Shown here piece after piece: positions 12,723-64,000 of a DNA stretch of 64,000 nucleotides (the stretch's first letter is position 1; each line of letters starts with the position of its first letter). Source of the DNA: Vicinamibacterales bacterium (GTDB lineage Bacteria > Acidobacteriota > Vicinamibacteria > Vicinamibacterales > UBA8438); NCBI GenBank assembly GCA_965263055.1, contig OZ253581.1, positions 1,071,794-1,135,793 of the forward strand, in the 5' to 3' direction. The translations under genes and the position numbers were made by a program. The notes beneath the pieces are model-generated. The model saw only the letters and a program-made list of their open reading frames with translations, was not told the DNA's origin and did no database searches.

Positions 12723-12759
12723 CGTTGCCCTCTATGGATGACCGATCCGTCCACGGCGA

Positions 12760-21408: not shown

Positions 21409-21412
21409 CCTC

Positions 21413-25071: not shown

Positions 25072-25093
25072 CGTGGCGTCTCGCCAGCCCCTT

Positions 25094-25987: not shown

Positions 25988-26053
25988 CAACAAGGAGCAT
26001 ACCATTGGCTCCACGACGCTGGAGCTTGTGAAACCAAGGGATCGCGCGCGACG

Positions 26054-26734: not shown

Positions 26735-26795
26735 GGCCAGGAGTGCAAGACGCCGCAGACGGTCTACTGCCCCCGTGGTGACATCGAAGACCGGA

Positions 26796-28739: not shown

Positions 28740-28843
28740 TACGATAGGATACCGTGGCCTATGATCCACCGCTAGCCAGCCAGCGGTGGGGGTGCACGTC
28801 CCTCCGAGGCGGTGAAAGAGGGGCAGGTGCTGCCGTAAGGGAG

Positions 28844-30684: not shown

Positions 30685-30695
30685 CGCTAGCTTCC

Positions 30696-31166: not shown

Positions 31167-31257
31167 CCGCCGAGCTGCACCACTCACGCAAACTCATGTG
31201 ATTATTGTTGCTGCTTGCGCTGGTTCAGCACAGGCCCCGCACCACAAGTTAGCGTAG

Positions 31258-33210: not shown

Positions 33211-33955
33211 CGTTCGCTGGCGACCGAGTTCTCGATAGTGCCGTCCACGCCGCGACCGTTGTACCTCGCCATTGAGGATGGCCAGAACGCGACGACCGGG
33301 CGAAGCGCAAATAGCGTCGGGCGTCAGGCGGCCAGGGAGGTCGAGCAGGTCTAATTCTGGGTGACTATGGATTTAATGCCAGCCTATCCGGACTTTCCGT
33401 CGCGGCGGCGGCCATTCGCCGAGCGTCCGCCAGTACGACACGGCAAGTCATTTATATAGTTTGAGGTAGTCAGGCCAGTACACCCACGCTCCCCATTCTG
33501 TACCCCACAAGGTGAACGGGACCGCATAGTGCCACAGACGCCTTCCGCGAGCAAACCAGACCTGGGCAACCGTGGTACAGGGATCCAGATCAACCGCGTC
33601 GATCCGCCAGATCCGAACCACTGCGACAGACGACGACGCGGCAACATCGAGTCAGAACGGATCCACTCTTGAGGATCCGAGCTCACTCACCAGATCACGA
33701 AAGCACACGAAAACCGGCCACGGAAAAAGCTGGCTCCTGACCGGTTATAGTGTCAGGAAGCAGCTTACTCAACGTGCCACATTGGGACTGGCAGGGGGCT
33801 CCGCCCCTCGACCCCCGGACAGAGATACCGTGCGGGCTGGGGATTCAGGCCCGGCCGTCGCCGGGTCGCTGAGGTTGCCACAAATGGGAAATTTACGGTG
33901 GCCACCAACATGGTCACCCGGCGTTGCACCGCCGTTGCGGCCGGCGCCGGGTTCG

Positions 33956-35098
33956 ATGGCCTCGGCAGCCCGTTCGTGGTCGTCGAGCCGCCACACGAGC
34001 GGGGGACGCCGCGCGGTCGAAGTCGCCGACAGGGCCACCCATCAGAAGCGCTACGGTCCGGCGTCGCGGCTGCTGCATGCGCTGGCGCTCGAGCGCCCCT
34101 TCGTCGCGGAGACCTGGCTCGACGTCGAGGAACTGCTGCACGGCCGCAATCTACCCGCAGCGGACGGCGGCGCGCATGTCTTCGTTACCGGTTTGGCACG
34201 CGCCGGCACCACGATGTTGATGCGGCTGCTACACGCCTCGGGCCGGTTCGCGTCGCTCAGCTACCGCGACATGCCATTCGTCCTGGCGCCGAACCTCTGG
34301 GCCTCGCTCACGCGACGGTCGCGGCGCGACCTCCCGGCGCAGGAACGGGCGCACGGCGACGGTGTCGTCGTCGATGCCGACAGTCCGGAAGCGCTCGACG
34401 AGGTCTTCTGGCGCGTCGTCTGCGGGAGCGACTACATCGGACCGAACACGCTGTCGCCGATGGAGGCGGACCGCGACGCGATGGATCGCTTCCGCCGCTA
34501 CGTCGCCCTGGTTCTGAAGCGGTATGGGTCCGACCGATACCTGTCGAAGAACAACAACAACCTGCTGCGGCTGCCGTCGTTACGCCGCGCGTTCCCGAAT
34601 GCGCACTTGGTTGTCCCGTTCCGCGATCCGCTGCGCCAGGCGGCGTCACTCCTGACGCAACACCGGCGCTTCTCCCAACAGCAGCGGGACGATCCGTTCA
34701 CCCGCCGCTACATGGCCTGGCTCGTGCATCACGAGTTCGGTCTCGACCACCGCCCGTTCGCGTTTGCGGGCAGCAACGCGCCCGCAGATGCGGACCGCGA
34801 TGACCCGGCGTACTGGCTGCAGCAGTGGGTCGCCGCCTACTCGCACGCGCTGGAGTGCGCGGACGAGACCGCCATCAATCCGATATTCGTCAGCTACGAA
34901 TGGATTTGCGCCGAGCCGGAGCGGGCTTGCGAGGCGCTGGCGTCACGTCTCGATCTTCCCCCGACGGCGCTCACGTTCGCGCCCCGCCGCTCCCCGACCG
35001 ACACGCCGGCAATCGCCGACCGCCCGCTGGTCGGCCGGGCGTGGGAGCTGTACGCGGCGCTCGACGAGCGGAGCCGGCGAGATGCGGCGACGCCATAG
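33956..35098 (+). CDS. Sulfotransferase-family protein
   Basis: PAPS 5'-phosphosulfate loop VFVTGLARAGTTMLMRLL and a later RYLSKNNNN segment. Start chosen at ATG 33956, within the longer track ORF (33572), so it is uncertain. Confidence 0.65.
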   Translation: MASAARSWSSSRHTSGGRRAVEVADRATHQKRYGPASRLLHALALERPFVAETWLDVEELLHGRNLPAADGGAHVFVTGLARAGTTMLMRLLHASGRFASLSYRDMPFVLAPNLWASLTRRSRRDLPAQERAHGDGVVVDADSPEALDEVFWRVVCGSDYIGPNTLSPMEADRDAMDRFRRYVALVLKRYGSDRYLSKNNNNLLRLPSLRRAFPNAHLVVPFRDPLRQAASLLTQHRRFSQQQRDDPFTRRYMAWLVHHEFGLDHRPFAFAGSNAPADADRDDPAYWLQQWVAAYSHALECADETAINPIFVSYEWICAEPERACEALASRLDLPPTALTFAPRRSPTDTPAIADRPLVGRAWELYAALDERSRRDAATP

Positions 35099-49460: not shown

Positions 49461-49701
49461 CGTGTGGATGCCGGCCGGCAACGGCGTGGCGTTGCTGATC
49501 GGACGTTGCTTTGTGAAAAAAGTATCAAGCGCAGGCCGAAAAAAGACCGCGGCGCAATGCCGACGGCTCTCGGCCTCCCCTCTCGGTGAATCGTAGCGTA
49601 CGGTGCGATTTTACACCACTTGACGGGACACTACCGATCCGCAACCATTGCCGCTTGTCCAGCAACCGGCGACTGCGCGGAAACACTGTTGGGAGAGCAC
49701 G

Positions 49702-52455
49702 ATGCCGATCATCAGAGACCTGCAGGAAGCGTTGAAGAACAGGCGGTCGAAGCCGGCCGATGCACTTCAGGCGGCGGTCGCAGCCGCGCAGGAGGAACGG
49801 GCTGCGTTGAGCGCGATGTTGCAGCAGATCAAGCCCCATGCTGCAAAGATGTCGAAGATTGGCGCATCGGTGAAGCAGGTGACCGAGCGCTCCTCGCGCG
49901 CGGCGGCCACATTGGAGGATTTGTCGAGCCGGCTGTCGGCGGTCGAAGCCACGACAGAGAGCGTCAAGGCCCTCGAGGGCCGAGTCCAGTCGCTCGTCGA
50001 TTCCGTCGATCGGGCGCAGCGGACGGCGCAGAATCTGCTGGCCGCTGACGGCGACCTCGCCAAGCACCGCCAAGCGATACAGCAGCTCACCAAGCAGGGG
50101 ATCGAGGCGTCCGCGAACTTCAGTGCCCTTGACAAGGAACGCGCGATTCTGAAAGGCGCTCAGGAGGAGCTGCGGCAGACGCAGGCTGTCGTGAAGGCCT
50201 CTTCCGACAAGTCGGGTACGCTCGCGGACGATCTCGACCGGCTCCGCGGGCAGGCGTCCCAGTTGCAACAGGATCACGATCGCCTGAGAGAGTCGTTGCG
50301 CAAGACGCGAGAGAACGCGGACCAGACTGCCCGGACCGCCCGCGACGTGGAGGAGCAGCTCGAACCGCTCACCCAGGTTCACGAGCTGAGCAAGACTACC
50401 GACGAACGGCTGTCTAACCTGAATGCGCTCGCCGAGCACGTGCTCAGCAAGGTGAAGTCGCTTGAGAGCCAGAGGCAGACGGTCGAGCATGCGGTGGTCG
50501 AATCGAATCGGTTGAGCGAGATGGTCTGGAAAATGGAGGTCCAGATCGGCAAGCTCGACGAGGCGAACAAGCAGGCGGCGCAGGTCGACGAGACGGCGCA
50601 ACGGATCGAGCAGGTCTCGAAGGGGATCACCGCACGTTTTGAGCAGGGGGAGAAGATCCGAGAAAGTTACACTACCAGCCTCGCAGCGCTCGAAACGGGA
50701 CGCACGGAGCTCGTCGAATTTGTCAAGGATTACACCGAGCGGCTGGCCATCGAACGTAAGACGCTGGACGGTCACGATGGGCGAGTGCGGACGCTTCAAA
50801 GCGCGCTCTCCGTGGCCGAACGCGACATCGGCAGTCTCTCCAACAAGGCCGGGGCCGTGGCGACGATGCAGCAGCGGGCCGACGATCTCGGTGGCCAGCT
50901 TGAGGGCTTTGGCGGTCGCGTGCAGCAGCTTGAGGCGCGGGCGGGCGAGCTGGAGAAGCTGGAGAAGGGCTTGAGCGGGATGGAAGCGCTGATCGAGGAG
51001 GTCGAACGTCGGCAGACGGCGTTGGCGCAGGGGCACTCGGAGCTCGACGCCCTTCGCAAGGAAGTCGACCAGTTTCACGTGGCGCACGCCGATGTCGTCA
51101 AGGCGCGGGACCAGATCAACACCGACCGGGGCGCGCTCGAGGCGTTCGTCAACCGGATAGACGAGTTCCGCCGGGGCATGCCAGCACTCGAGTCCGGCAT
51201 GGACGCGGTCAGCAAGAAGCTGTCGGTCGTCGACGAGGCAACGCAGAGAGCCGCGTCCCTGGAGACGACGGTCGACGATCTTGACAACCGGATGGCGCGC
51301 ATCGCCGATCATCAACAACTGGTCGAGAAAGTCGGTACGCGTCTGGATGGGCTCAACACACTGAGCGCTTCCGTTGACGAACGGGTTGCCGAGCAACTAA
51401 CCCGTCAGCAGGCGGTGATGGCGCTCAAGAACGAGTGCGACGGTGTCGATGTCCAGATTGATGACGCACAGAAAAAGTTGCGGAGGGTGGCCGCGCTCCA
51501 GAACACGCTCTTGCCACTGACGACCCAGGTGGCCGCGTTGAAGACGCGGATCGATGGGCTCGTAGGCGCATGCAAGGAATACGACGCCGAAAGGGCTGAC
51601 CTGACCGAGCAAGAGCGGCGCATCTCCGAAACGGCCGACCGCACCCGCGACGTGGCGACGACGGTTGACGACCAGATCCGGCGAGTCCAGGAGGCTTCGG
51701 AAGAACTCGGCCGGGTTTCGACGCTCAAGGACGAGCTGCTGCAGGAGCTGGGCCGCGCTCAGAAGCACCAACGCGACGTCAGCGCGCGCATGAAGACCGG
51801 GGATGAACAGATCAAACGAGTCGATCTGCAGCTTGTGCAGCTCGATCAGCGACATTCCCAACTGGCGTTCTCCGACAAACGGATTGCCGCGGCGGAGAAG
51901 CGGATCTCCGAACTCCAGGCCCTGGAAGAGGGCGTCGAGCGGCAGATGCAGGCCGTCATTGCGCATGGAGACGCGGTGGGCGCCGTCAAGAAGGAGATCG
52001 ACAACGTTCACCAGATCAGTCAGCAGAGCAAGACCGACCTGCAGGAGATCATCAAGCAGCGTACGCAGATCGACACGCTGCACCAACTACTCAACGCAGC
52101 AGGGAAACGCGTTGGCGAAACGGAGCGGCAAGTGGCCGCCATCGAGTCCCGCAGGGCGATGATCGGCGAGTTGCAACTCAAGACGAGCATGATCGGCAAC
52201 GTGCTGAAGGACGTGCACGTGAATCTCGAACTGCTCGCCGAGCAGCGCGCCATTGTCGATCACGCGCTCGAGGGGATGACGCGTGTGCAGGAAGACACCC
52301 GGAACGCACAGGCGACACTCAAGGCGCTTCAAGCCGAGCGACAGCTCGCCGAACGGATCGAACGCGGCATCAAGCGGCTGCGGACCGAGACGACCGCAGC
52401 GTGGACGGATGTCGAAGCACCGGGGGAAGATGCCAAGGTGCGGCGACCGGCCTGA
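49702..52455 (+). CDS. Very large all-alpha coiled-coil protein with no enzymatic motif, TM helix or signal peptide
   Basis: ATG 49702 is preceded by GGGAGAG. About 918 aa of heptad-like E/Q/R/K/L/A-rich sequence. GC is visibly lower than in the flanking genes. The long antisense ORF (49525-51396) is typical of coiled-coil coding DNA. Confidence 0.75.
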   Translation: MPIIRDLQEALKNRRSKPADALQAAVAAAQEERAALSAMLQQIKPHAAKMSKIGASVKQVTERSSRAAATLEDLSSRLSAVEATTESVKALEGRVQSLVDSVDRAQRTAQNLLAADGDLAKHRQAIQQLTKQGIEASANFSALDKERAILKGAQEELRQTQAVVKASSDKSGTLADDLDRLRGQASQLQQDHDRLRESLRKTRENADQTARTARDVEEQLEPLTQVHELSKTTDERLSNLNALAEHVLSKVKSLESQRQTVEHAVVESNRLSEMVWKMEVQIGKLDEANKQAAQVDETAQRIEQVSKGITARFEQGEKIRESYTTSLAALETGRTELVEFVKDYTERLAIERKTLDGHDGRVRTLQSALSVAERDIGSLSNKAGAVATMQQRADDLGGQLEGFGGRVQQLEARAGELEKLEKGLSGMEALIEEVERRQTALAQGHSELDALRKEVDQFHVAHADVVKARDQINTDRGALEAFVNRIDEFRRGMPALESGMDAVSKKLSVVDEATQRAASLETTVDDLDNRMARIADHQQLVEKVGTRLDGLNTLSASVDERVAEQLTRQQAVMALKNECDGVDVQIDDAQKKLRRVAALQNTLLPLTTQVAALKTRIDGLVGACKEYDAERADLTEQERRISETADRTRDVATTVDDQIRRVQEASEELGRVSTLKDELLQELGRAQKHQRDVSARMKTGDEQIKRVDLQLVQLDQRHSQLAFSDKRIAAAEKRISELQALEEGVERQMQAVIAHGDAVGAVKKEIDNVHQISQQSKTDLQEIIKQRTQIDTLHQLLNAAGKRVGETERQVAAIESRRAMIGELQLKTSMIGNVLKDVHVNLELLAEQRAIVDHALEGMTRVQEDTRNAQATLKALQAERQLAERIERGIKRLRTETTAAWTDVEAPGEDAKVRRPA

Positions 52456-52469: not shown

Positions 52470-52585
52470 TCGACGGTCACGACGTAGCGGGTTGACGGAT
52501 TCAGCGCGGCCAGCTCCGCCTCTCCCCGCAGGTCGGTGACCGCGACGCGCGTCGTGGCGGCATCGTCGAAGTGTACTCCGCAGCG
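52470..52585 (-). pseudogene. Remnant of the 5' end of a TonB-dependent-receptor-like paralog
   Basis: 52470-52564 matches 55498-55592 with a handful of mismatches. 52559-52585 matches 55745-55769 (start codon/5'UTR). This implies an internal deletion across the shared GCATC. Confidence 0.6.
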
Positions 52586-52673: not shown

Positions 52674-52907
52674 TTAGCCGAGGTAGGGTTTCGCGTCCTC
52701 GAACCGTTCGATTCCGTCTGGCGCGAACACCAGGTCAACGTCGAACCCATTGCGCATCGTCTTCTGGATGAACACGTCTGCATCCTGCGTGGTGTCCGGG
52801 AAGCCGTGGAGGATGGCTCCCGTCTTGCCGATGAACAGGTAGGTGACTCCGTGGCGATGGAAGGCGTCTCGCAGGTCCTCGACCTGCTTGTAGCTAATCG
52901 CTCCCAT
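52674..52907 (-). CDS. Small protein with minimal Pol-beta-type nucleotidyltransferase signature
   Basis: 77 aa. HGVTYLFIGKTGAILHGFPDTTQDADVFI fits the G-x(n)-D-x-D pattern. It overlaps the upstream small ORF by 14 nt. Confidence 0.4.
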   Translation of the reverse strand: MGAISYKQVEDLRDAFHRHGVTYLFIGKTGAILHGFPDTTQDADVFIQKTMRNGFDVDLVFAPDGIERFEDAKPYLG

Positions 52908-53142
52908 CGCTCCTGTAGCCCAGCCAGTCCGGCAGGTTCTCGTTGCACCAGCGGCGATAATCCGCCGTGCTCTCGAAGGATCTGTACGGCTGGTCGTCGA
53001 GCACCGGCTTGTACGTGTGGACGAAGGCGTACCGCAGGTGGAGATCGAGCGGCCGGGCGGCCGCGGCGTCGAATTCGTCTCGCCATGCGCGATTCATGTC
53101 CATATTGTGCCTCATCGGGTCAGGGTGCGGAGCGGACCTCAT
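52894..53142 (-). CDS. Small hypothetical ORF upstream of the NTase-like ORF (possible starts 53142, 53115, 53103)
   Basis: ...MDMNRAWRDEFDAAAARPLDLHLRYAFVHTYKPVLDDQPYRSFESTADYRRWCNENLPDWLGY. It is read in the same frame as the truncated receptor ORF, so coding status is uncertain. Confidence 0.3.
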   Translation of the reverse strand: MRSAPHPDPMRHNMDMNRAWRDEFDAAAARPLDLHLRYAFVHTYKPVLDDQPYRSFESTADYRRWCNENLPDWLGYRSDGSD

Positions 53143-53153
53143 GGAGCGTGACT

Positions 53154-53184
53154 TGCAATTTTGAATTTCAAATGCAAAATTGCA
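53154..53184. repeat. AT-rich inverted repeat TGCAATTTTG-N11-CAAAATTGCA (candidate operator/promoter)
   Basis: Read directly from the sequence. It is by far the most AT-rich 30-40 nt noticed in this window. It lies where receptor homology ends and just upstream of the two small ORFs. Confidence 0.6.
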
Positions 53185-53199
53185 TGATCCGCTACGTTT

Positions 53200-55747
53200 C
53201 GCTCGATCCACCCAGTTCCCACCGATCTGGAACCCTTGGCCCCAGGTGTACGACGAGCTGACCTTGAACAGATGCGCGATCGAGCCGGGCTGGACCCCCA
53301 CCTGGTGCGGCGCACGCGGGTCCAGCCAGATCACGTCGCCCTGGAAGTCGGCGTTCGAATCGGAGTTGGTGTTCCCCGTGGCGTCGCCGTAGGTGTAGGC
53401 GGCCAGCGCCTGCCAGTTGTCCCGCAGCCGCTGCCGGAACGTGAATTCCACACCCTGATAGTCCCGCCGGCCGCCGGCGAGCGTCGCGATGATGAAGTTC
53501 GACTCGGGGAAGCTGTCGTAGCCGAAACAGTCGAGGCCGAGGAAGAGCGAGTCCGGATGCTCGACCGGCCCCGGATAGGCCGTCGTGCCGTCGCCGCGGA
53601 AGGCGTACAGCGCCAGGTCGTAGTCCTCGATGATGTCGCGCGTCCGGCGCCGCGTGTACAGCGCCATGAAGCTGCGGCCCCGGCCGAGGTCCGTCTCGTA
53701 GCTCAACTGGAGGTCGTCGGTCCAGGGCGTCTTCGTGGTCGGCGCGAACAGCGCGTCGGCCTGCTGCGGCCCGCCGCGCACCCGGTACGTCACCCACTGA
53801 TCGTTCGCATACACCTGCTCTTCGCGCGTCGATCCGCTGAGGGTGCCGGCAAAGTTGGTCAGGTTGTTGCGGATCGGATCGTAGTAGCGGCCGTAGAACG
53901 CGCTGACCCGCTGCTGGCCGCGGCCCGACGGGTCGTATGACACGCTCAGGCGCGGCGCCAACGTCCAGTCGAAGGTGAAGACGTTCGAGCCGTCGGTCGC
54001 GACATGCTCGAACCGCTCGGCGCGCGCGCCAATGTTGAACGACAGGTTGTCGGTGACGTTGAACGTGTCCTGCACGAACAGGCTCAGGCCGTCCGAGCGG
54101 GTCTCCTGCGATCCCAGCGCGGTCTGCACCAGCCGGTCGTAGTTGATAGCGCCGTGCGGATTGCCGGCCGTGCTGTCAAACACCAGGCCGGCGCCCAGCT
54201 CGTCCTGCGTGATCGTGCCGTCGCGGTTCCCGTCGTACAGGGCATAGAACTCGGCCCGGTTCGCCAGCCCGTCAATGGCCCGGATGAAGCCCGTGTAGTC
54301 GCTGCTGTTCGTCGGGTCGAACTGCGTATTCGTGAAGCTGCCGGCGATCAGGCCGCCGGCCGTGAGGCCGGACAACGCCGGCGACAGCGACACGTACAAT
54401 CCGCCGTCGTAGGTGGTGTCACGGAAGTTCCTGTTCCGCATGAACTCGACCGCCGAGCTGCTCGTCCTCGAGTGTCCGCACGTCGGTGTCGCGGAAGACG
54501 ACGCTGTTGCGCGGGCCGGGCACGACCGCGAAGTCGGACACCTCCCCGTTGTGCCGGCTGTACGACCCCTCCACCAGCACGCCGCCGAACAGGCGGTTGT
54601 ACTTCAGGTGGTAGTTGTTGCCCCCCTGCACGCGGCGCCTGTCGCGTGCGTTCGTCACGTCGCGGTCGCGGCTGCCGCTGATGTCCGTCGGATCGTTCAG
54701 GAACGTGAAGCTCAGCGTGTCGGCGGTGGTCGGCGCCCAAGTGCCGCGGCCGTAGAACTGATCCTGCGTGTTCTCGACGCTGCGGATGACGTCCACCCCG
54801 TCCAGGGCGACCACCGTGTCGCTGCGCTCCAGGCGGCGGTAGCTGCCGAAAAACCACGCCTCGTTGGCCACGATCGGTCCCCCGCCGGTGACCGCCGCGT
54901 CGAAGCGCGAGAACGCCAGGTCCGCGGCGTTGCGGTTCTCGGCGACGAGGCCGTCGTTCTGAAAGAAGTAGTTGACCGAACCGCTGAACTGCTCGGTCCC
55001 GGACTTCGTGATGACGCTCGACAGCAGGCCGGGCGCGCCGACGTATTCGGCGGGTATGCCGCCGGTCAGCACCTGCTGCTCCTGGATGATCTCGGTATTG
55101 AGGTTGGCGCCGAAGGTGCCGCTCACGCCGTCGGTGACGTTGATCCCGTCGATGTAGTAGAAATTGTCGCGCGACACGCTCGTATTGCCGCCGATGTCGC
55201 TGTAGTTGAGTCCCGACTTCGACGCCGGGTTGCCGGGCGACTCCGGATCGTCCGGAAACACGCCCGGCACCAGTTGCAGATAGCTCTGGTAGGTGCGCCC
55301 CGTCGGGACCGCCTCTGTCAGGTCGAGGGTGATGTCCTCGGCCACCACCGCGCTCGTCACGTCCACCACCGGAGACGCGGCGGTCACCACCACGGTCTCG
55401 GCCACGTTGCCGGCCGTCAACGTGACCCGGGCCGACGCCGTCTGGCCCGCGCGGACCAGGAAATCTTCCTGCCGGCTCGTCTGGAATCCCTGGAGTTCGA
55501 CGGTCACGACGTAGCGAGTTAACGGATTCAGCGCGGCCAGCTCCGCCTCTCCACGCATGTCGGTGACCGCGACGCGCGTCGTGGCGGCATCCTCCGCCGC
55601 GGCGGTCACCGTGGCGCCGGGGACCGCCAGACTGTCCTGATCGGTGACGAAGACACGTATGTTCCCCGTCGTGGTGACCTGGGCGCCGGCAGATCCAGCG
55701 GCCATGGCTGCCAGCAGCACAGGCGGGACCAACCATCGACGCAGCAT
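53200..55747 (-). pseudogene. TonB-dependent-receptor-like outer-membrane protein with N-terminal CarboxypepD_reg domain; frameshifted and 3'-truncated
   Basis: Signal peptide MLRRWLVPPVLLAAMAAGSAGAQ, then TGNIRVFVTD...GATVTA...TDMRGEAELAALNPLTRYVVTVELQGFQ, then plug/barrel-like sequence. The reading frame switches between track ORFs 54419-55747 and 52894-54441. Barrel-like sequence ends at about 53200. Confidence 0.65.
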
Positions 55748-55841: not shown

Positions 55842-57098
55842 ATGAGACATTGACGGGAACCACTCTCCCGGCTATCTGCCGCCGCTGGCACCCCAGCGCG
55901 TTCCGCAGCGGCTCCTGGTATTGGCTCGGAGCGGTCTCTCTGACGGTGCTCTGGTTGGCGACCGTCGGACTGGCGCCTGACGCCGGGCTCACCCGCAGCT
56001 ATTGGTATCCAGGCGACGCCGCGACCGAACCGATCCTCGACGAACGAATCATGGCCGTCGATCTAGCTTTCATCGACGAGCGAAGCCGGCCGACCCGGAA
56101 CTACCGGGTTCGCTGGCAAGGTGTGTGGTTCTCGCCGCGAGCCGAACGCGTTGACTTTTATGCAGGAGCGGACGACGGCGTCATCCTTCGAGTGGATGGC
56201 GACACCGTCCTGGAACGCAATCCAGCGCTGGGCATGCACACGGTGGCCCGAACCGTGGAGCTCGCGGCGGGAGCGCATCGGCTGGAAATCGACCACTGGC
56301 AAGACGGCGGCGCGCGGAGCTTGAATGTGCAATGGGCGCCCGCCGGCGACACCCGGGCGCCCCTGAGCCCGACTCGTCTATTCCCAGAGGATCCGGGCGC
56401 ACTCGGCTACTGGCTGCGCGTCTCCGCGATGCAATTGCCCGTCCTCGTCCTGTTGGTGTGGGCGACAGGCGTTGCGGTGCTGGCCGGGCGAACAGTCTGG
56501 CGAACCATATATCGAAGGGTCACGAGCCTGAGTCCGGACGAGCGTTGGCGCCGCCTGCGTACCGTCCTGTTTCCCGCCTTGCTCGGCCCCAGCCAGCTCC
56601 TTCTCTTCGGCCCGTGGACGGTGCACGTCACCAATCGGACCGAGTTCCTGGTGGGATTCTGGGAACTCGCATCCGGCTGGGTCTGGCTCATCGGACCCAT
56701 CGTCGGCGCCCTGATGGCACTCGGGATCGTCATGCCGGTCCGATGGTTCCGACGTTACGTAGCGGGACTTTGCGCGGTCGGGGTGCTGCTCTGGGCGCAG
56801 GGGAACCTGCTGCTCGCCGACTACGGGCTGCTGGACGGCGGCGGGCTCGACCTGGCATCGCACGCGTGGCGAACACCGTTCGAAGCCGGCTTGTGGGTGG
56901 GCGTGCTTCTTCTCGCCGTGGTATTCGCCAACATGGTCGCTCGCGTCGCGACCGTTGGGAGCGTGGTGCTGGTGACGCTACAGGCAACCGTCCTTTTGGT
57001 CCCGGTCGGCAGAGTGGCAACGGCCGACGTACCCTCAACGCCAACCGCCGAGACCGCCTGGCGGTTGCCGCCGCCAGAGATCTACGAACTCTCAAGCA
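55842..57098 (+). repeat. Direct repeat copy 1 (segmental duplication; partner 62744-64000+)
   Basis: By-eye alignment, checked at three separated points (55842/62744, 56291/63193, 57091/63993). All three give the same 6902-nt offset. Mismatches are scattered and no indels were noticed. Confidence 0.85.
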
Positions 57099-58657
57099 CG
57101 CGCAACCTCATCCACATCGTGCTCGACATGTTCCCGTCAGATACGTTCGCCGACATCCTGGACGCCGACCGTTCCGCCTTCGATCGTGACTGGCCCGGTT
57201 TCACGTTCTTCGCCAATCACCTCGGCGTCCATCGAACCACGAGGGGCTCCATGCCCGCGATGCTCTCGGGCGTCGCCTTTCGTAACGAGATGCCGTTCCG
57301 CGAGTTCCTCGCTCGCCATCCATCCGTCTTCCACGCACTCGGCCAGCAAGGCTATCGACTCCGATCGGCGACCTCCATCAGTAGCGACCATCCGAACCCG
57401 TCGTTCTCCGGGGTCGACGCCGCGATCCGATACGACATCCCGACGCCTTACGGCAGCTACCGTGACTATGTCGATGTCGCGACAGCGCAATTGCTGGACC
57501 TATCGCTGTTTCGGCACGCGCCGCACCCATTCAAGCCTGGCATCTACCGTGATCGGCAATGGTTCTTCCAACAGCAGATCGAGTCGCGCCGGGGACCGGC
57601 GGCGACAGCGGAGCGGCCCTTTGGAGACACCGCGTTTCTGCGTGAGTTCGCCAATCGGATCACCCGAGGCGTCGACGCGCCGGTGTACACGCTCCTCCAC
57701 GTGATTACGCCGCACCCGCCGGTCGTGACGGACGCGGACTGCGCGTACGCGCTTAATCGGACGCCCACTGCGGGAGACTTCGCGAACCAGGCACGGTGCG
57801 CCTTGTCAGTGGTCCAGACGCTGCACCATCGACTTCGGTCCCTCGATCTCTACGACCGAAGCGCCATCATCGTCACCTCCGACCACGGACTGAACCTCCT
57901 GCCTGAAGATCAGCATCCATTGCGCCATATGAGATCGCCGGCCGGGGTAACTTTCGCCAAGATCGAGCCTGACGCCACCCCTGTGCTCCTGGTTAAGCCG
58001 GTCGACGCCCGTGGTCCGCTGCAGATCTCGTACGCTCCCACCTCGATTACCGACGTGCCCGCCACTCTGCTCGACCTCGCAGGCCTCCCCGACACTCTGG
58101 GACGTGGCACGTCGGTACTCAGGATGGATCCAGCAGCCTCCCGGCAGCGCACATATGCACACCATGAGCCAGGCGACAGCCCGGATCCTTTCTACGATGC
58201 TCTCTACGTGTTCGCTGTCAACGGGCGGGTCACCGACCCAGATGCCTGGAGCTATCACCGGTCGGTATTCGGGCCCACGGATGATCGCGCAGCGCAACGC
58301 CGAGAGCATCAGATCGGATTGTCTGCAGATCCGGATGACACGGCAACCCAGTCTGGCACTCCCATCTACCGGACCGACGGATACGCGGTCTTTTACGCGG
58401 CGGCCGAGAACTCGCGCGTTACGTTCGATGTCCGCAGGATACCGGCCATGGCCGCTGCCCAGACGGTGACCGTGCGGATCGACGGCGACATCGTTGACCA
58501 ACAGCTACTCGCGGACGACGCTTGGCACACGCTCTCATACCCGGTCGAGGCGCGGTCTTCCGAAGACAGCCCGTTCTGCATCGAGTTGCTGACGAGTCCG
58601 GTCTGGTACGACGCAACAGGCGAGTCCTACGGTCTGATGCTGCGGGGCGACATCTGA
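55850..58657 (+). CDS. PA14-domain + polytopic membrane + alkaline-phosphatase/sulfatase-superfamily (LtaS/MdoB-like) protein
   Basis: 935 aa with a TTG start and an N-terminal TM. PA14-like: NYRVRWQGVWFSP..DFYAGADDGVILRVDGDTV...HRLEIDHWQDGGARSLNVQW. Several TM helices follow. Sulfatase-fold motifs are IHIVLDMFPSD, HRTTRGSMPAMLSG and IIVTSDHG. There is an extra C-terminal domain of about 200 aa. Confidence 0.7.
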   Translation: MTGTTLPAICRRWHPSAFRSGSWYWLGAVSLTVLWLATVGLAPDAGLTRSYWYPGDAATEPILDERIMAVDLAFIDERSRPTRNYRVRWQGVWFSPRAERVDFYAGADDGVILRVDGDTVLERNPALGMHTVARTVELAAGAHRLEIDHWQDGGARSLNVQWAPAGDTRAPLSPTRLFPEDPGALGYWLRVSAMQLPVLVLLVWATGVAVLAGRTVWRTIYRRVTSLSPDERWRRLRTVLFPALLGPSQLLLFGPWTVHVTNRTEFLVGFWELASGWVWLIGPIVGALMALGIVMPVRWFRRYVAGLCAVGVLLWAQGNLLLADYGLLDGGGLDLASHAWRTPFEAGLWVGVLLLAVVFANMVARVATVGSVVLVTLQATVLLVPVGRVATADVPSTPTAETAWRLPPPEIYELSSTRNLIHIVLDMFPSDTFADILDADRSAFDRDWPGFTFFANHLGVHRTTRGSMPAMLSGVAFRNEMPFREFLARHPSVFHALGQQGYRLRSATSISSDHPNPSFSGVDAAIRYDIPTPYGSYRDYVDVATAQLLDLSLFRHAPHPFKPGIYRDRQWFFQQQIESRRGPAATAERPFGDTAFLREFANRITRGVDAPVYTLLHVITPHPPVVTDADCAYALNRTPTAGDFANQARCALSVVQTLHHRLRSLDLYDRSAIIVTSDHGLNLLPEDQHPLRHMRSPAGVTFAKIEPDATPVLLVKPVDARGPLQISYAPTSITDVPATLLDLAGLPDTLGRGTSVLRMDPAASRQRTYAHHEPGDSPDPFYDALYVFAVNGRVTDPDAWSYHRSVFGPTDDRAAQRREHQIGLSADPDDTATQSGTPIYRTDGYAVFYAAAENSRVTFDVRRIPAMAAAQTVTVRIDGDIVDQQLLADDAWHTLSYPVEARSSEDSPFCIELLTSPVWYDATGESYGLMLRGDI

Positions 58658-58791: not shown

Positions 58792-59211
58792 ATGAGCCTG
58801 GCAGACGCGCGCTGGATCGACATTCGCCACAACGACGACGCGCGGGGAACGCTGACGGCGCTGGAAGGCGACGAACTTCCGTTTCCGGTCCGGCGGGTTT
58901 TCTACATGCACGGCGTGCCGGAGGGTGGCGAGCGCGGCGCGCATGCGCACCGCTACACGCAGCAGTGCCTGATCGCGGTGGCGGGCGCGTTCACGGTCGA
59001 TTTGTCGGACGGCGCGGCCACGGCCACCTACGTCCTCGACGATCCGAACCGCGCCCTCTATCTGCCGGTCATGACCTGGGCGCACCTGCGCAACTTCCTG
59101 CCCGACACGGTGGCGCTGGCCCTCTGCGATACGGTCTACAATCCGGCCCACGTCGTCCGTTCGTGGGACGAATACCGCCGGCTGGTTCAGGAGATGTCAC
59201 CTACCCCATGA
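58792..59211 (+). CDS. WxcM/FdtA-like cupin (NDP-4-keto-6-deoxyhexose 3,4-ketoisomerase-like)
   Basis: 139 aa, DDARGTLTALEGDELPFPVRRVFYMHGVPEGGERGAHAHRYTQQCLIAVAGAF.V.L.DG, the typical FdtA cupin pattern. Confidence 0.75.
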   Translation: MSLADARWIDIRHNDDARGTLTALEGDELPFPVRRVFYMHGVPEGGERGAHAHRYTQQCLIAVAGAFTVDLSDGAATATYVLDDPNRALYLPVMTWAHLRNFLPDTVALALCDTVYNPAHVVRSWDEYRRLVQEMSPTP

Positions 59212-60644
59212 GCGGCGCGCAGCCCATCGAGAGCGCGGACCGGCCCGGATTCCTGGCCTCGGCCCTGTCCGCCGAAGGCCGCTTCTCCGACGTCTCCGCC
59301 GCCCGCCGCTGGCTGCACGAGCGCCGCCGGACGCAGCGGTGCCACGTCGAACGGATCCCGTTCGCGGCTCTGCGGGGATGGTGCTTCGAGCCGGACTCCG
59401 GTGACCTCACGCACGACTCGGGACACTTCTTCCGCGTGCAGGGCGTCCGGGCCCGGTCCGACTTCCCCGCCCCCCTCCGTTTCGAGCAGCCGATCGTCAA
59501 CCAGCCCGAGATCGGCGTCCTCGGCATCCTCGCCAAGCGCTTCGACGGCGTCCTGCATTTTCTGCTTCAGGCCAAGATGGAACCGGGCAACATCGACCTC
59601 GTCCAGTTGTCGCCTACGGTCCAGGCGACGCGGAGCAACTACACGCGCGTGCACGGCGGCAAGCGCCCGCGCTATCTCGACTTCTTCCTGCGGCGCGGTG
59701 TCAACCGCGTGCTGGTGGATCAGCTCCAGTCCGAGCAGGGGCTCTTCTTCCTGCGCAAGCGCAACCGGAACATCATCGTGGAGACCCGCGAGGACGTCCC
59801 GCTCCACAACGACTTCCACTGGCTGACGCTCGGGCAGATCAAGAGGCTGATGCAGGAACCGCACACTGTCAACATGGACACCCGCACGGTGATTGCGGCC
59901 GTCCCGCTGGTGGGCGGCGGGGGCGAGGCGCCGGCCGCCGGCAGCCCGCCCCAGCCCGCCGCAGGCAGCTTCGGAGAGGCGCTCATCGCATCGACGCTGG
60001 CCCGGGACGAGGGATGCCAGCCGATCGAGGCAGTGCTGAGTTGGCTGACCGAGATTCGCGCGTGCGCCGAAATCGACTGCCAGCCGTGCGGGCTGAGCAG
60101 CGTGCCGGGGTGGGAGCGCGACGCGCACGAGCTGCGCCAGCGCGACGGCCGGTACTTCCGGGTCTTCGGGGTCGAGGTGGAATCGGACGCCCGCAAGGTG
60201 CCGGGGTGGACGCAGCCGATGGTCCAGCCGGTGGAGACGGGCATCGCCGCCTTCGTCACGCGGCGCATCGGCGGCCTGCTGCACTTCCTGGTGCAGGCGC
60301 GCATGGAACCGGGCGTCTGGAACCTGATCGAGCTCGGTCCGACCGTGCAGTGGCTGCCCGGCGTCCCGACCGACAAAGATCAGGCGCCTTACCTGCTGGA
60401 GGAGGTCATCACCGGGGCCGCGGGCGTCGTCCGGCACCGCTCGACCCAGTGCGAGGAGGGGGGACGCTTCTACCGGTACGCCACCGAGAACATCATCCTC
60501 GAGCTGGACCCGGTCGACGACCGGCCGGCGCCGCCGAACTACACCTGGGTCACCCTCAGCCAACTGAACACGCTGATCCGCTACGGCAACCATTTGAACA
60601 TCGAGGCCCGCAGCGTGCTCGCCTGTCTCGACGTCCAAGGCTAG
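59208..60644 (+). CDS. NDP-hexose 2,3-dehydratase (EvaA/TylX3-type, duplicated domain)
   Basis: ATG 59208 is in ATGA overlap with the upstream stop. Two repeats of the pattern EIGVLGILAKRFDGVLHFLLQAKMEPGN / GIAAFVTRRIGGLLHFLVQARMEPGV are present. It also has SEQGLFFLRKRNRNIIVE...DFHWLTLGQIKRLM...VNMDTRTV. Confidence 0.8.
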   Translation: MSGAQPIESADRPGFLASALSAEGRFSDVSAARRWLHERRRTQRCHVERIPFAALRGWCFEPDSGDLTHDSGHFFRVQGVRARSDFPAPLRFEQPIVNQPEIGVLGILAKRFDGVLHFLLQAKMEPGNIDLVQLSPTVQATRSNYTRVHGGKRPRYLDFFLRRGVNRVLVDQLQSEQGLFFLRKRNRNIIVETREDVPLHNDFHWLTLGQIKRLMQEPHTVNMDTRTVIAAVPLVGGGGEAPAAGSPPQPAAGSFGEALIASTLARDEGCQPIEAVLSWLTEIRACAEIDCQPCGLSSVPGWERDAHELRQRDGRYFRVFGVEVESDARKVPGWTQPMVQPVETGIAAFVTRRIGGLLHFLVQARMEPGVWNLIELGPTVQWLPGVPTDKDQAPYLLEEVITGAAGVVRHRSTQCEEGGRFYRYATENIILELDPVDDRPAPPNYTWVTLSQLNTLIRYGNHLNIEARSVLACLDVQG

Positions 60645-60651
60645 CCACGCC

Positions 60652-61626
60652 GTGCACCTGCTGTTCCTCGGCTATTCCAGCATCGTCCGGCGGCGCGTGC
60701 TGCCCGCCGCACGGTCCGTCCCCGCGATCCGTCGCGTCTCGGTCGCCTCGCGCAGCCAGGGGCGGGACGGGGCGGAGGCCCGCGCCGAGGGCGATGGCAC
60801 GGTTGACCGCTGGCATTCGGACTACGACGAAGCACTCGCCTCCGCCGCGGCCGATCTGGTCTACGTGTCGGGCGCCAACGCGGACCACGCGGAGTGGGTG
60901 ATGCGCGCCCTCGGTCACGGCTGCCACGTCATCGTGGACAAGCCCGCGTTCCTGGACCTAGAGACCGCCGAGGCGGCGGTGCGCCTCGCGCGGGAGCAGA
61001 ACCGGGGCCTGGCCGAGGCGACGGTCTTCCTGTTCCACCCGCAGGCGGCGGCGCTGCGCGCGCTCGTCGACCCGGCCGAGTCGCCTGTCACCCGCGCCAC
61101 CGCCACGTTCTCGTTTCCGCCGCTGCCGCCGGGCGACTTCCGCTACCGCGCCGACCTCGGCGGCGGCAGCCTCTACGACCTCGGCCTCTACGCCGCGGCG
61201 ACGAACCGGCTGCTGTTCGGCGCCGCCCCGGACGACGTGCACTGCAAGGTCCTCTCGCAGCATACCTCGCCAGACGCCGGCGTCGACACGTCGTTCAGCG
61301 TGCTGCTGACCCACAGCGACGGCGGATCCCTGGTGGGCCATTTCGGCTTCGTCACGGCGTATCAGAACCGGCTGTCCGTGGTGACCCGCTCCCGGACCAT
61401 CGATGCGGATCGCCTATTCACGACACCGCCGGACCTGGCGTGCACGCTGCGAGTGCGCGAGGGGCACGACGACCACGCCGTGCCAGTGGCGCCGGGCGAC
61501 GCCTTCGCGCTCTTTCTCGAAGCGTTCGTCGACGCGACAAAGCGGCGCGAGTTCGGCCCCTTCGAACGCGCCCTGCTGGACGACGCCGCGCTGATCGCCC
61601 GCCTGCGCCGGGCGGCCGGGCTCTAG
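60652..61626 (+). CDS. Gfo/Idh/MocA-family oxidoreductase (candidate NDP-hexose C3-ketoreductase)
   Basis: 324 aa with a Rossmann N-terminus LLFLGYSSIVRRRVLPA and HAEWVMRALGHGCHVIVDKP (EKP-like motif). The functional assignment comes from context with the 2,3-dehydratase. Confidence 0.6.
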   Translation: MHLLFLGYSSIVRRRVLPAARSVPAIRRVSVASRSQGRDGAEARAEGDGTVDRWHSDYDEALASAAADLVYVSGANADHAEWVMRALGHGCHVIVDKPAFLDLETAEAAVRLAREQNRGLAEATVFLFHPQAAALRALVDPAESPVTRATATFSFPPLPPGDFRYRADLGGGSLYDLGLYAAATNRLLFGAAPDDVHCKVLSQHTSPDAGVDTSFSVLLTHSDGGSLVGHFGFVTAYQNRLSVVTRSRTIDADRLFTTPPDLACTLRVREGHDDHAVPVAPGDAFALFLEAFVDATKRREFGPFERALLDDAALIARLRRAAGL

Positions 61627-61630
61627 GACC

Positions 61631-62737
61631 ATGGCGATCCAGGTCTGGGACTACCGGGCGGAGTACGAGGCGGAGCGGGAGGATCTCCTCGCCGCCGTGG
61701 ATCAGGTGGCGCGCTCGGGACGCCTGATCCTCGGCGAGAGCGTCCAAAGCTTCGAGCGCGAGCTGGCGGCGTACTGCGGCGCCGGGCACGGGGTCGGCGT
61801 GGGCAGCGGCACCGATGCGCTGGTGCTGGCGCTGCGGGCGCTCGACCTACAGCCGGGCGACGAAGTGATCACTACGTCGAATACCGCCATCCCGACCGTG
61901 TCGGCCATCGTCACTGCGGGCGGGACGCCCCGCTTCGTGGACATCGAACGAGACACCTACCTGATGGACGTATCGCAGCTCGACGCGGCCATCACGGAAA
62001 GGACCCGATGCATCATCCCGGTGCACCTCTTCGGGCAGTGCGTGGCGATGGACCGCGTGCGGGCGGCAGTCGAGCGCCGCGGAATTGTGGTGCTCGAAGA
62101 CTGCGCGCAGAGCACCGGGGCAAAGCAGGCGGGGCGCGGCGCGGGCTCGCTGTCAGACATTGCGGCGTTCTCGTTCTACCCCACCAAGGTCCTCGGCGGC
62201 TACGGCGACGGCGGCATGGTGGTCACCTCGGACGAGGGGCTCGCCACGCGCGTACGGCGGCTCCGAATGTACGGCACCGAGGGACGCTACTTTGCCGAGG
62301 AACACGGCTACAACTCGCGGCTCGACGAGCTGCACGCAGAAATCCTCCGGCGGAAGCTCCGGCGCCTCGACGTGTACATCGAAAGGCGTCGCGGGTTCGC
62401 GCGCCGCTACGACGCGGCGCTCCGGGACTCCGGCCTGCTGCTGCCGGTCACCGCGCCCGGGAACCACCACGTCTACTACCTCTACGTCGTGCGACATCCG
62501 GCCCGCGATGCGATCCTGCAGGAACTGGCCGCGCGGGACATCCTGGTCAACGTCAGCTACCGGTGGCCCATCCACACGATGCCGGCCTACTCGCACCGCG
62601 GCTATCCGGAAGGTTCGTTGCCCGAGACCGAGCAGGCGGCACGGGAGATCTTCTCGCTGCCCATGTATCCTTCGCTGACGGACGCCGAACAAGATCGCGT
62701 TTGCGAGGGGTTGCACGAGATTCTGCCTCGCTCGTAG
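61631..62737 (+). CDS. DegT/DnrJ/EryC1/StrS-family PLP-dependent sugar aminotransferase
   Basis: 368 aa: ILGESVQSFERELAAYCGAGHGVGVGSGTDAL, IPVHLFGQ, and FSFYPTKVLGGYGDGG (PLP Lys). Confidence 0.9.
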   Translation: MAIQVWDYRAEYEAEREDLLAAVDQVARSGRLILGESVQSFERELAAYCGAGHGVGVGSGTDALVLALRALDLQPGDEVITTSNTAIPTVSAIVTAGGTPRFVDIERDTYLMDVSQLDAAITERTRCIIPVHLFGQCVAMDRVRAAVERRGIVVLEDCAQSTGAKQAGRGAGSLSDIAAFSFYPTKVLGGYGDGGMVVTSDEGLATRVRRLRMYGTEGRYFAEEHGYNSRLDELHAEILRRKLRRLDVYIERRRGFARRYDAALRDSGLLLPVTAPGNHHVYYLYVVRHPARDAILQELAARDILVNVSYRWPIHTMPAYSHRGYPEGSLPETEQAAREIFSLPMYPSLTDAEQDRVCEGLHEILPRS

Positions 62738-62743: not shown

Positions 62744-64000
62744 ATGAGACCTTGACGGGAACCACTCTCCTGACTATCTGCCGCCGCTGGTACCCCAGCT
62801 CGTTCCGCGCAGGCTCCTGGTATTTGCTCGGAGCGGTCTCACTGACGTTGTTCTGGTTGGCGACCATCGTACTGGCGCCTGATACCGGGCTCACGCGCAG
62901 CTATTGGTATCCAGCCGACGCCGCGACCGAACCGATCATTGAGGAACGAGTCACGGCCGTCGATCTGGCGTTCATCGACGAGCGAAGCCGGCCGACCCGG
63001 AACTACCGGGTTCGCTGGCGGGGTGTGTGGTTCTCGCCGCGAGCCGAACGCGTTGACTTTCATGCAGGAGCCGACGACGGCGTCATCCTTCGAGTGGACG
63101 GCGACACCATCCTGGAACGCAATCCAGCGGTGGGCATGCATACGACGGCGCGCACCGTGGAGCTTGCGGCAGGAGTGCATCGGCTGGAAATCGACCACTG
63201 GCAAGACGGCGGCGCGCGGAGCCTGGATCTGCAATGGGCGCCCGCCGGCGACACTCCGGCGCCCCTTAACCCGACTCGCCTATTCCCAGAGGATCCGGGC
63301 GCACTGGGCTACTGGCTGCGCTTCGCCGCGATGCGATTGTCCGTGCTCGTCCTGCTGGTCTGGGCGACAGGCGTTGCGGTGCTGGTCGGGCGAACAGTCT
63401 GGCGAACAATCTATCGAAGGGTCACGATCCCGAGCCCGGAGGAGATTCGGCGCCGCCTGCGCGCCATACTGTTCCCTGCGGCGCTCGGCCCCAGCCAGCT
63501 CCTTCTCTTCGGCCCGTGGACGGTGCACGAGACCAACCGGACCGAGTTCCTGGTGGGGTTCTGGGAACTCGCATCCGGCTGGGTCTGGCTCATCGGACCC
63601 GTCGTCGGCACCCTAGCGACACTCGGCATCGTCATGCCGGCCAGGTGGTTCCCACGGTACGTAGCGGGACTCTGCGCGGTCGGGGTGCTGCTCTGGGCGC
63701 AGGGGAACCTGCTACTCGCCGACTACGGGCTACTGGATGGCAGCGGGCTCGACCTGGCATCCCACGCGTGGCGAATGCCGTTCGAAGCCGGCCTATGGAT
63801 CTGTGTACTCCTTCTCGCCGTGGTATTCGCCGACATGGTCGCTCGCGTAGCGCCCGTCGCGTGCGTGGCGCTGGTGGCGCTACAGGCAACCGTCCTCTTG
63901 GTCCCGGTCGGCAGAGTGGCAACAACCGACGTACCCTCGACGCCAACCGCCGAGACCGTTTGGTGGTTGCCGCCGCCAGAGATCTACGAACTCTCAAGCA
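62744..64000 (+). repeat. Direct repeat copy 2 (continues beyond the window)
   Basis: See copy 1. Confidence 0.85.
62752..64000 (+). CDS. Second PA14 + polytopic (+ presumably sulfatase) protein, paralog of 55850-58657; partial, runs off the window
   Basis: TTG 62752 sits in the same context as the first copy. Manual translation gives LTGTTLLTICRRWYPSSFRAGSWY...NYRVRWRGVWFSP...HRLEIDHWQDGGARSLDLQW...PPPEIYELSS. It is colinear with copy 1 at a constant offset of 6902 nt. Confidence 0.75.
   Translation, partial: MTGTTLLTICRRWYPSSFRAGSWYLLGAVSLTLFWLATIVLAPDTGLTRSYWYPADAATEPIIEERVTAVDLAFIDERSRPTRNYRVRWRGVWFSPRAERVDFHAGADDGVILRVDGDTILERNPAVGMHTTARTVELAAGVHRLEIDHWQDGGARSLDLQWAPAGDTPAPLNPTRLFPEDPGALGYWLRFAAMRLSVLVLLVWATGVAVLVGRTVWRTIYRRVTIPSPEEIRRRLRAILFPAALGPSQLLLFGPWTVHETNRTEFLVGFWELASGWVWLIGPVVGTLATLGIVMPARWFPRYVAGLCAVGVLLWAQGNLLLADYGLLDGSGLDLASHAWRMPFEAGLWICVLLLAVVFADMVARVAPVACVALVALQATVLLVPVGRVATTDVPSTPTAETVWWLPPPEIYELSS

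Follow-up and report, generated by a model that had tools for sequence, protein, structure and literature searches.

What sugar would be made, and for what purpose, by a gene cassette that carries an antibiotic-type 2,3-dehydratase with no antibiotic cluster around it? The question is raised by four adjoining genes in a 64,000-nucleotide (nt) stretch of the genome of an uncultured soil bacterium of the Vicinamibacterales (Acidobacteriota; assembly GCA_965263055.1, contig OZ253581.1, positions 1,071,794 to 1,135,793 of the forward strand), which in its whole length we call the window. The genes encode a cupin of the FdtA type, a nucleoside diphosphate (NDP)-hexose 2,3-dehydratase of the EvaA type, a Gfo/Idh/MocA reductase and a DegT/DnrJ/EryC1 aminotransferase. 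In a 2022 review of nucleotide-sugar dehydratases, the 2,3-dehydratases listed all come from antibiotic pathways (PMC8987622). We find that the four-gene set is a conserved and recurrent unit. The best explanation overall, to which we give about an even chance of being right, is that it is an operon-like module that would make an aminotrideoxyhexose for a cell-envelope glycan.

Four packed genes and their catalytic residues

All four genes lie on the forward strand. The first encodes a cupin of 139 amino acids (aa) (58792-59211; PF05523 FdtA, 121 bits, E-value (E) 3e-35), the second the 478-aa dehydratase (59208-60644; PF03559 in two stretches, 463 bits, E 7e-140), the third the 324-aa reductase, which has a GTG start (60652-61626; PF01408 and PF22725), and the fourth the 368-aa aminotransferase (61631-62737; PF01041, 366 bits, E 2e-109). 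Their packing is operon-like, with the cupin stop and the dehydratase start sharing an ATGA and the later gaps measuring 7 and 4 nt. The E-values for these families are well outside the range of chance, and the same four assignments had been made by a first-pass annotation from the letters of the sequence; Pfam and the solved structures in the PDB bear them out. The NCBIfam equivalog cut-off was reached by none of the five proteins searched, and a promoter and terminator scan of 55.5-64 kilobases (kb) was uninformative, giving zero promoter-like sites and weak terminator-like sites that were all intragenic.

The first-pass annotation had named the 478-aa protein as a hexose 2,3-dehydratase. 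Its sequence confirms it as a two-domain NDP-hexose 2,3-dehydratase of the EvaA/TylX3 family, which is Nudix-derived, and dehydration at C2 is predicted for it: two tandem Hexose_dehydrat domains lie in one chain, both halves align to EvaA (PDB 4j7g, E 5e-117), and E125 and E176, which are invariant across 17 homologues, stand in an ungapped block at the places of EvaA E139 and E190. The catalytic roles of these two EvaA glutamates have been described (PMC8987622).

For the reductase, the closest solved relative is the sugar 3-ketoreductase KijD10 (3rbv, E 2e-31, about 32% identity), with the next match at 1e-16. In the alignment K97 and Y180 stand opposite KijD10 K102 and Y186, the tyrosine column being marked by the Y186F mutant chain 3rc7. 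We regard the enzyme as a putative NAD(P)-dependent ketoreductase of deoxythymidine diphosphate (dTDP)-sugars, a diverged relative of KijD10 in a subfamily of its own. A role as a 3-dehydrogenase of the WbpB/GnnA type was considered and rejected, KijD10 being the sole strong solved relative; no enzyme named WbpB or GnnA is among the PDB matches that could be named, to which 6nor (2.4e-7) and 7bvj (8.5e-4), both weak, do not belong.

The cupin matches the PDB ketoisomerases 7n67, WlaRB (5tpu), FdtA (2pa7) and QdtA, with 4zu7 also matched, at E-values of 1e-21 to 1e-13. Its H51 and H53, in an RG-HAH motif, align with the FdtA histidine pair, His49 and His51, which is reportedly the catalytic pair of that enzyme. 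It is accordingly named here as a putative dTDP-sugar 3,4-ketoisomerase of the FdtA/QdtA type.

The aminotransferase has its Schiff-base lysine, K186, in an FYPTK motif (aligned to 7b0d), so that it carries the lysine that binds pyridoxal phosphate and not the histidine of the dehydrases. Its best solved relatives (overall E 1e-96 to 1e-70) are 7b0d, DesV (2e-87), QdtB (2e-78) and WbpE (9e-71), which are C3 enzymes wherever their function is known; the C4 enzymes follow with perosamine synthase at 3e-57, ArnB at 2e-50, DesI at 2e-36 and WecE at 5e-36. The choice between C3 and C4 aminotransferases had been left for a phylogeny to make. A ranking by E-value, used here in place of a full phylogeny, puts the enzyme nearer to the C3 side, and on that basis it appears to group with the C3 clade. 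Since catalytic residues are kept in each of the four enzymes, all of them look active.

Recurrence of the cassette among EvaA loci

To view the cassette against its relatives, we gathered EvaA homologues with their loci from three sources: species-representative genomes, contigs of metagenomes, and contigs encoding database hits. They came to 106 loci, or 102 once duplicates were removed. Open reading frames (ORFs) at these loci were called mechanically, and the dehydratase tree is a quick neighbour-joining tree. A locus was classed as type I if its reductase was at least 39% identical to the window's, or if its aminotransferase was at least 50% identical and a reductase was present. By this rule 26 loci are of type I, while 9 fall into type II, 44 into type III, and 23 are unclassifiable because they are too short or otherwise.

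Type I loci are uniform. The cupin lies directly upstream of the dehydratase in 24 of the 25 that have enough upstream sequence, and a C3-type aminotransferase at least 50% identical to the window's is found in every one of the 20 with enough downstream sequence. The gene order (cupin, dehydratase, reductase, aminotransferase) is fixed, even where the identity of the EvaA-type dehydratase falls to 36%, and every cupin copy retains the histidine pair. The genomes closest to the window are metagenome-assembled genomes (MAGs) of Vicinamibacterales, with dehydratases 91-94% identical; MAGs labelled Acidobacteria/Vicinamibacterales, Chloroflexota (locus L010) and Flavobacteriaceae (L015) are among the carriers as a whole. 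The first-pass annotation had called the joint presence of a ketoisomerase and a dehydratase/3-ketoreductase pair an unusual mix. The mix is indeed there, but it is not the oddity of one genome, given that roughly a quarter of the EvaA loci have it.

The sole exception to the cupin rule among the 25 assessable loci is L021 (with its duplicate L022), whose cassette (9332-14324) has smpB in the position of the cupin.

The reductases set type I apart as well. Like the cassette, the known 2,6-dideoxyhexose pathways (KijB1/KijD10, Gra-orf27/26, OleV/OleW, SpnO/SpnN) have a dehydratase gene and, directly after it, a Gfo/Idh/MocA gene. The type I reductases, however, form a separate subfamily, 27-35% identical to KijD10 with scores of 75-139 bits, whereas those of the other environmental EvaA cassettes (types II and III) are 35-49% identical and mostly score 190-266 bits (exceptions being L042 with 171, L067 with 164 and L038 with 115). 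Among 5.8 billion protein clusters the type I subfamily is rare, with just 240 members at E no higher than 1e-40, all of them from metagenomes or MAGs.

The nine type II loci (L058, L067, L070, L072, L075, L077, L087, L092 and L093) make up a narrow clade in the neighbour-joining tree. Their cupins have HAL in place of HAH, their reductases are canonical and KijD10-like, and the best solved relatives of their aminotransferases are the C4 enzymes DesI and perosamine synthase, so that the ranking is the reverse of that for the window's enzyme. In type III there is no cupin, the reductase is canonical, and an aminotransferase is either absent or 24-37% identical to the window's. An intact HAH cupin was thus seen only alongside a C3-clade aminotransferase, and the loci with no cupin (44) or with a HAL cupin (9) have a C4-type aminotransferase like DesI and perosamine synthase, or none.

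The predicted amino sugar and a proposed order of its assembly

From the families and residues above we infer a substrate, an order of steps and a product. The precursor would be dTDP-4-keto-6-deoxy-D-glucose, supplied by rmlA and rmlB from elsewhere in the genome. The EvaA-type dehydratase would strip the C2 hydroxyl to give a 3,4-diketo-2,6-dideoxy sugar, which the Gfo/Idh/MocA enzyme would reduce at C3 to a 4-keto-2,6-dideoxy sugar; the FdtA-type cupin would then shift the keto group from C4 to C3, where the DegT enzyme would transaminate it, and the finished amino sugar would be incorporated into a cell-envelope glycan. As the aminotransferase ranks with the C3 enzymes, the amine is expected at C3, and with the C2 hydroxyl removed by the dehydratase the product would be a 3-amino-2,3,6-trideoxyhexose. 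The earlier prediction of a 2-deoxy amino sugar is in this way kept and made narrower. We think it probable that the product belongs to the class of dTDP-3-amino-2,3,6-trideoxyhexoses. The exact order (dehydratase, 3-ketoreductase, 3,4-ketoisomerase, C3-aminotransferase) is a more tentative prediction, with a chance that falls a little short of even. It is favoured because every enzyme would carry out the known reaction of its family, all four would be used, and no keto group would be left unreduced, which fits the absence of a 4-ketoreductase of the short-chain dehydrogenase/reductase (SDR) kind beside the cassette in Vicinamibacterales.

The fate of the amine may vary. At three Vicinamibacterales-related loci a class I S-adenosylmethionine-dependent methyltransferase of about 245 aa follows directly after the aminotransferase (L003, 15681-16424; L019, 13522-14259; L021, 13566-14324). 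Against the PDB it matches generic class I methyltransferases, at best with E 2e-8, and the sugar N-methyltransferase CalS10 at 4e-6. A tblastn search of the window for this cassette-linked methyltransferase gave zero matches; the amine may therefore stay free here, or the enzyme that modifies it may be encoded at another place in the genome.

After a dehydratase and a 3-ketoreductase, the simplest continuation would be to place the amine at C4, giving a 4-amino-2,4,6-trideoxyhexose of the kedarosamine/tolyposamine-precursor type with the cupin in some other role, and this is apparently what type II and III loci do with their DesI-like enzymes. For the window we consider it the least probable of all the readings weighed here, and hardly likely at all: the E-values of its aminotransferase for C3 enzymes run 20-50 orders of magnitude ahead of those for C4 enzymes, and it shares just 24-37% identity with its DesI-like counterparts at type II and III loci.

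Another way to view the cassette is as two classical gene pairs that make two sugars. The cupin and the aminotransferase match FdtA with FdtB and QdtA with QdtB, the classical O-antigen and S-layer pairs, and could make a dTDP-3-amino-3,6-dideoxyhexose (Fuc3N/Qui3N type), while EvaA with a 3-ketoreductase is the classical 2,6-dideoxy pair and could make a dTDP-4-keto-2,6-dideoxyhexose, to be finished by a reductase encoded elsewhere. The Fuc3N and Qui3N pathways (FdtA/FdtB, QdtA/QdtB, WlaRA/RB/RG, Tyl1a/TylB) do share with the cassette a ketoisomerase with the histidine pair, a C3 aminotransferase and, as is probable for the cassette, a surface-glycan setting. However, distant lineages retain the four genes together and in the same order, with reading frames that overlap or nearly abut, the reductase subfamily is specific to the type I cassette, and neither a 4-ketoreductase nor an N-acyltransferase was seen with the cassette in Vicinamibacterales, all of which makes two separate sugars quite improbable. 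A single sugar made by all four enzymes, as we favour, departs from the Fuc3N and Qui3N pathways in that these leave the C2 hydroxyl in place and use neither a 2,3-dehydratase nor a 3-ketoreductase, so the isomerase of the cassette would need to accept a 2-deoxy substrate. Reportedly, the Tyl1a ketoisomerase takes the 2-deoxy analogue of its substrate.

The main rival concerns the order of the steps rather than the class of the product. As in the daunosamine and ristosamine pathways, the diketo sugar made by the dehydratase could be transaminated directly at C3, as by EvaB or DnmJ, after which the cupin would act as an epimerase in place of the RmlC/EvaD type and the Gfo enzyme as a 4-ketoreductase in place of the SDR enzymes EvaE/DnmV. 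Both orders give the same product class; the intermediates differ, and possibly the D or L configuration. The pathways to epivancosamine (EvaA-E), daunosamine (DnmT/J/U/V), ristosamine, acosamine and angolosamine start, like the cassette, with a two-domain EvaA-type dehydratase that has the same catalytic glutamates, and these actinomycete 3-amino-2,3,6-trideoxyhexose pathways also have in common with it a C3-clade aminotransferase and the predicted product class. The cassette differs from them in having no RmlC-type epimerase and no SDR 4-ketoreductase, and in having an FdtA-type cupin and the diverged Gfo/Idh/MocA reductase instead.

Several observations weigh against the order that we favour and on the side of direct transamination. 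The aminotransferase has its closest actinomycete relatives, at 57-59% identity, in clusters of Streptomyces (L013) and Paractinoplanes (L017), and these clusters pair it with EvaA and, at least at L013, with an RmlC-type epimerase, but with neither a Gfo 3-ketoreductase nor an FdtA cupin, a gene content that implies direct addition of the amine to the diketo sugar. The reductase, at its modest identity to KijD10 and in a subfamily apart from the canonical 3-ketoreductases, may differ in regiochemistry. At L021 the dehydratase, reductase and aminotransferase persist intact, together with the methyltransferase, in a locus that has no cupin, which suggests that the cupin may be dispensable, as would be expected if it merely set the D or L configuration. 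Finally, the cupin of type II loci has a C4-type aminotransferase as its partner, a setting in which there would be no use for a ketoisomerase.

On the other side, direct transamination calls for two types of reaction that are unknown for the families concerned, namely an epimerase of the FdtA type and a 4-ketoreductase among Gfo/KijD10-like enzymes. All type I cupins have kept the histidine pair of the ketoisomerases and it is the type II cupins that have lost one of the two, while KijD10 is by far the nearest solved relative of the reductase, which retains its catalytic lysine and tyrosine. We therefore judge the daunosamine-like order unlikely, though clearly the strongest of the competitors, and keep to reduction at C3 followed by ketoisomerisation.

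The probable envelope setting and the surrounding window

If the sugar is of the kind known from antibiotics, the cassette could also serve a secreted natural product that it decorates, the remaining cluster lying past the end of the window or at another place in the genome. Cultured bacteria have their 2,3-dehydratases almost only in antibiotic clusters (PMC8987622), and among 72,556 sequenced plasmids that we searched an EvaA homologue occurs in 90 records, all of them actinomycete. Moreover, the sequence context was read no further than 370 nt past the membrane-protein gene (described below) that follows the cassette and runs over the window end. The first-pass annotation had raised the prospect of a secondary-metabolite cluster just past that end; as far as the sequence was read none is seen, the next gene being this membrane-protein paralogue.

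Within the 64-kb window, the Pfam-scanned ORFs contain no polyketide synthase or nonribosomal peptide synthetase (PKS/NRPS), no antibiotic-type glycosyltransferase of the GT-B fold, no pathway regulator such as a Streptomyces antibiotic regulatory protein (SARP), and no exporter. Searching the window by tblastn with Streptomyces RmlA, RmlB and RmlC, an EryCIII-type transferase and SDR sugar enzymes gave zero matches. The first-pass statements that PKS/NRPS, GT-B and rmlA/rmlB genes are missing hold up against both kinds of search, and rmlC can be added to them. By comparison, the Streptomyces locus L013 has the textbook antibiotic layout, with an EryCIII-type glycosyltransferase, a SARP regulator, an RmlC-type epimerase beside EvaA, an exporter of the major facilitator superfamily, and RmlA and RmlB; tblastn found no homologue of its cluster proteins in the window. 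Downstream of the cassette, over 8-10 kb, the closest genomes have insertion sequences and housekeeping or glycan genes: transposases, Uma2, an AAA ATPase, a fragment of UDP-glucose dehydrogenase and GT2 genes. The region around the Vicinamibacterales cassette is variable, its neighbours being transposases, Uma2, an AAA_14 ATPase, GT2 with DUF2304, or a methyltransferase with large unannotated membrane proteins.

The clearest contexts come from diverged copies. Four type I loci with a dehydratase identity of 48-54% (L023-L026) are embedded in O-antigen/capsule-type loci. L023 is surrounded by Wzy_C, SDR enzymes, Wzm, Wzt with a Wzt_C domain, methyltransferases, GT2 and GT1; L024 by GT4, GT2, a WecA-type Glycos_transf_4, Wzt and Wzm, with L025 similar to it; and L026 by a Wzx flippase, glycosyltransferases and Bac_transf. 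When Pfam families were tallied for 76 neighbouring ORFs at 12 type I loci, the commonest were methyltransferases (12), GT2 (9), SDR sugar enzymes (8), RmlD-type enzymes (7) and ATP-binding cassette transporters (5), and PKS/NRPS families are not among the 25 commonest of the 73. These diverged copies and the missing cluster genes make a natural-product role highly improbable. The surface-glycan reading, which the first-pass annotation had put forward as a possibility, is strengthened by the same four loci, and we hold it very probable that the cassette makes a nucleotide sugar for the envelope. Compared with the actinomycete pathways, then, the cassette has no nearby aglycone genes, GT-B transferase, SARP regulator or exporter, and it has an acidobacterial host and diverged copies in polysaccharide loci.

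Environmental contigs often carry the type III pairing of an EvaA-type dehydratase with a canonical 3-ketoreductase, and a tally of 13 type III loci is alike, being mostly made up of SDR sugar enzymes, GT1/2/4, Wzx-type flippases and methyltransferases. It may be that many uncultured bacteria have 2-deoxy sugars in their surface glycans.

Two results count against the proposed acceptor, an envelope glycan. In the window no glycosyltransferase, flippase or polymerase adjoins the cassette, the nearest glycan genes lying 24-37 kb upstream, past housekeeping genes. The literature that we searched, which left most subscription journals outside, contains no report of a 3-amino-2,3,6-trideoxyhexose in a bacterial surface glycan. 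The same search found nothing that links acosamine, ristosamine, daunosamine or angolosamine to an O-antigen or capsule, and no paper that joins an EvaA-type dehydratase, an FdtA-type isomerase and a 3-ketoreductase.

The enzymes themselves thus belong to known families, with the reductase divergent, and what we could not find described in that literature is their combination, its fixed order and its polysaccharide context. The fullest form of our proposal is that type I represents an undescribed route (dehydration, C3 reduction, 3,4-ketoisomerisation of a 2-deoxy sugar and C3 transamination) whose product would build O-antigen/capsule-type glycans in several uncultured Gram-negative phyla; taken as a whole this is doubtful, and we would sooner expect some part of it to fail than all of it to hold. 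If it were true, no 2-deoxy amino sugar of the 'antibiotic' type would have been found in bacterial surface polysaccharides before this one. To our knowledge the predicted class has so far been met only in drugs, such as daunorubicin and the glycopeptides of the vancomycin class. The repertoire of surface glycans would gain 2-deoxy amino sugars, which are acid-labile and easily overlooked in standard hydrolysis, and glycodiversification would gain new enzymes, among them a 2-deoxy-sugar ketoisomerase or a Gfo-type 4-ketoreductase. It would also give a first handle on the envelope chemistry of Vicinamibacterales, which are abundant in soil and whose genomes in this analysis are all uncultured MAGs. 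That the window's cassette is one member of a class widespread in metagenomes lessens the surprise, and the data point to a large uncharacterised reservoir of 2,3-dehydratase chemistry in polysaccharide-type loci of uncultured bacteria.

In the window, the cassette is flanked on both sides by genes for membrane proteins. The upstream gene (55850-58657, forward strand) encodes 935 aa with the sulfatase fold PF00884; its downstream paralogue (62752-64000, forward strand) is cut by the window end and comes to 939 aa in full, as translated from the complete gene in L001 and L107. The first-pass description of the neighbours as membrane sulfatase-fold proteins and an outer-membrane receptor agrees with the Pfam, PA14 and fold matches. 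The upstream protein has an N-terminal helix, a PA14 lectin-like domain (residues 80-186; PDB 6qdi, E 9e-10), about six helices, an alkaline-phosphatase-fold domain like that of LtaS and PbgA, and a C-terminal beta domain. Its AlphaFold2 model (predicted local distance difference test score 72.6) has its best fold matches in PbgA (6xlp, full-length PbgA/YejM) and LtaS (2w5q/4uor), with E 2e-9 to 5e-9.

Residues D426, T464, D678 and H679 are invariant in 30 homologues, a pattern that, by analogy only, fits phosphotransferases of the LtaS/EptA type rather than formylglycine sulfatases. The flanking proteins resemble LtaS, PbgA (YejM) and EptA in their multi-helix anchor, periplasmic sulfatase-fold domain and Asp/Thr/Asp-His set, in which, by the same comparison, the threonine is the likely nucleophile; they differ in the added PA14 and C-terminal beta domains.

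The two paralogues are 81% identical, and the first 300 nt of their genes (55842-56141 and 62744-63043) are 91% identical in DNA. As the second starts 14 nt past the aminotransferase stop, it is probably co-transcribed with the cassette. One or two copies of the membrane-protein gene adjoin the cassette, upstream, in the closest relatives (L002 and L004-L006) and not in relatives at 78-80% identity; L004 and L005 have two copies upstream, a tandem expansion of the family. Nearly all homologues come from ENA metagenome assemblies, and the four with a named source, among the members listed, are Acidobacteria MAGs. In Vicinamibacterales the sugar may be handled together with these PA14-bearing, LtaS/PbgA-like membrane enzymes.

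Read from its start, the window has ribosomal and other housekeeping genes (1-16 kb), a glycan-type stretch (19.7-35 kb), insertion sequences (35.7-40 kb) and then purH, selA, apbE and the nqr operon (40-49.6 kb), followed by a coiled-coil protein, a receptor and the cassette. By Pfam, the glycan-type stretch (19723-35098) holds a Wzy_C gene (19723-21408), a GT2 gene (26054-27016), a PMT_2 transferase of the GT-C fold (31258-33210) and a sulfotransferase (33530-35098), along with several large ORFs that match nothing in Pfam. The transferase for the cassette sugar may be encoded in this stretch.

The coiled-coil protein (49648-52455, forward strand, 935 aa) has weak Pfam matches, for example to BLOC1_2. 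It and the TonB-dependent receptor (52894-55747, reverse strand; CarboxypepD_reg and an OMP beta-barrel) intervene here between the nqr operon and the upstream membrane-protein gene, while in the relative L002 the membrane-protein gene comes straight after the nqr operon, and then the cassette. A tblastx comparison of the genes downstream of the cassette in L002 with the window gave short, scattered matches of 22-42% identity, which we read as noise from high GC content and discarded. The receptor gene is split into two ORFs (54419-55747 and 52894-54441) that overlap by 23 nt, and is either a frameshifted pseudogene or the result of an assembly indel; a metagenome contig that matches this region is labelled '4x', which suggests low coverage. 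A direct repeat of 98 nt with 95% identity (52470-52567 and 55497-55594) places part of the 5' end of the receptor gene again beyond its 3' end, and looks like the remnant of a duplication or rearrangement.

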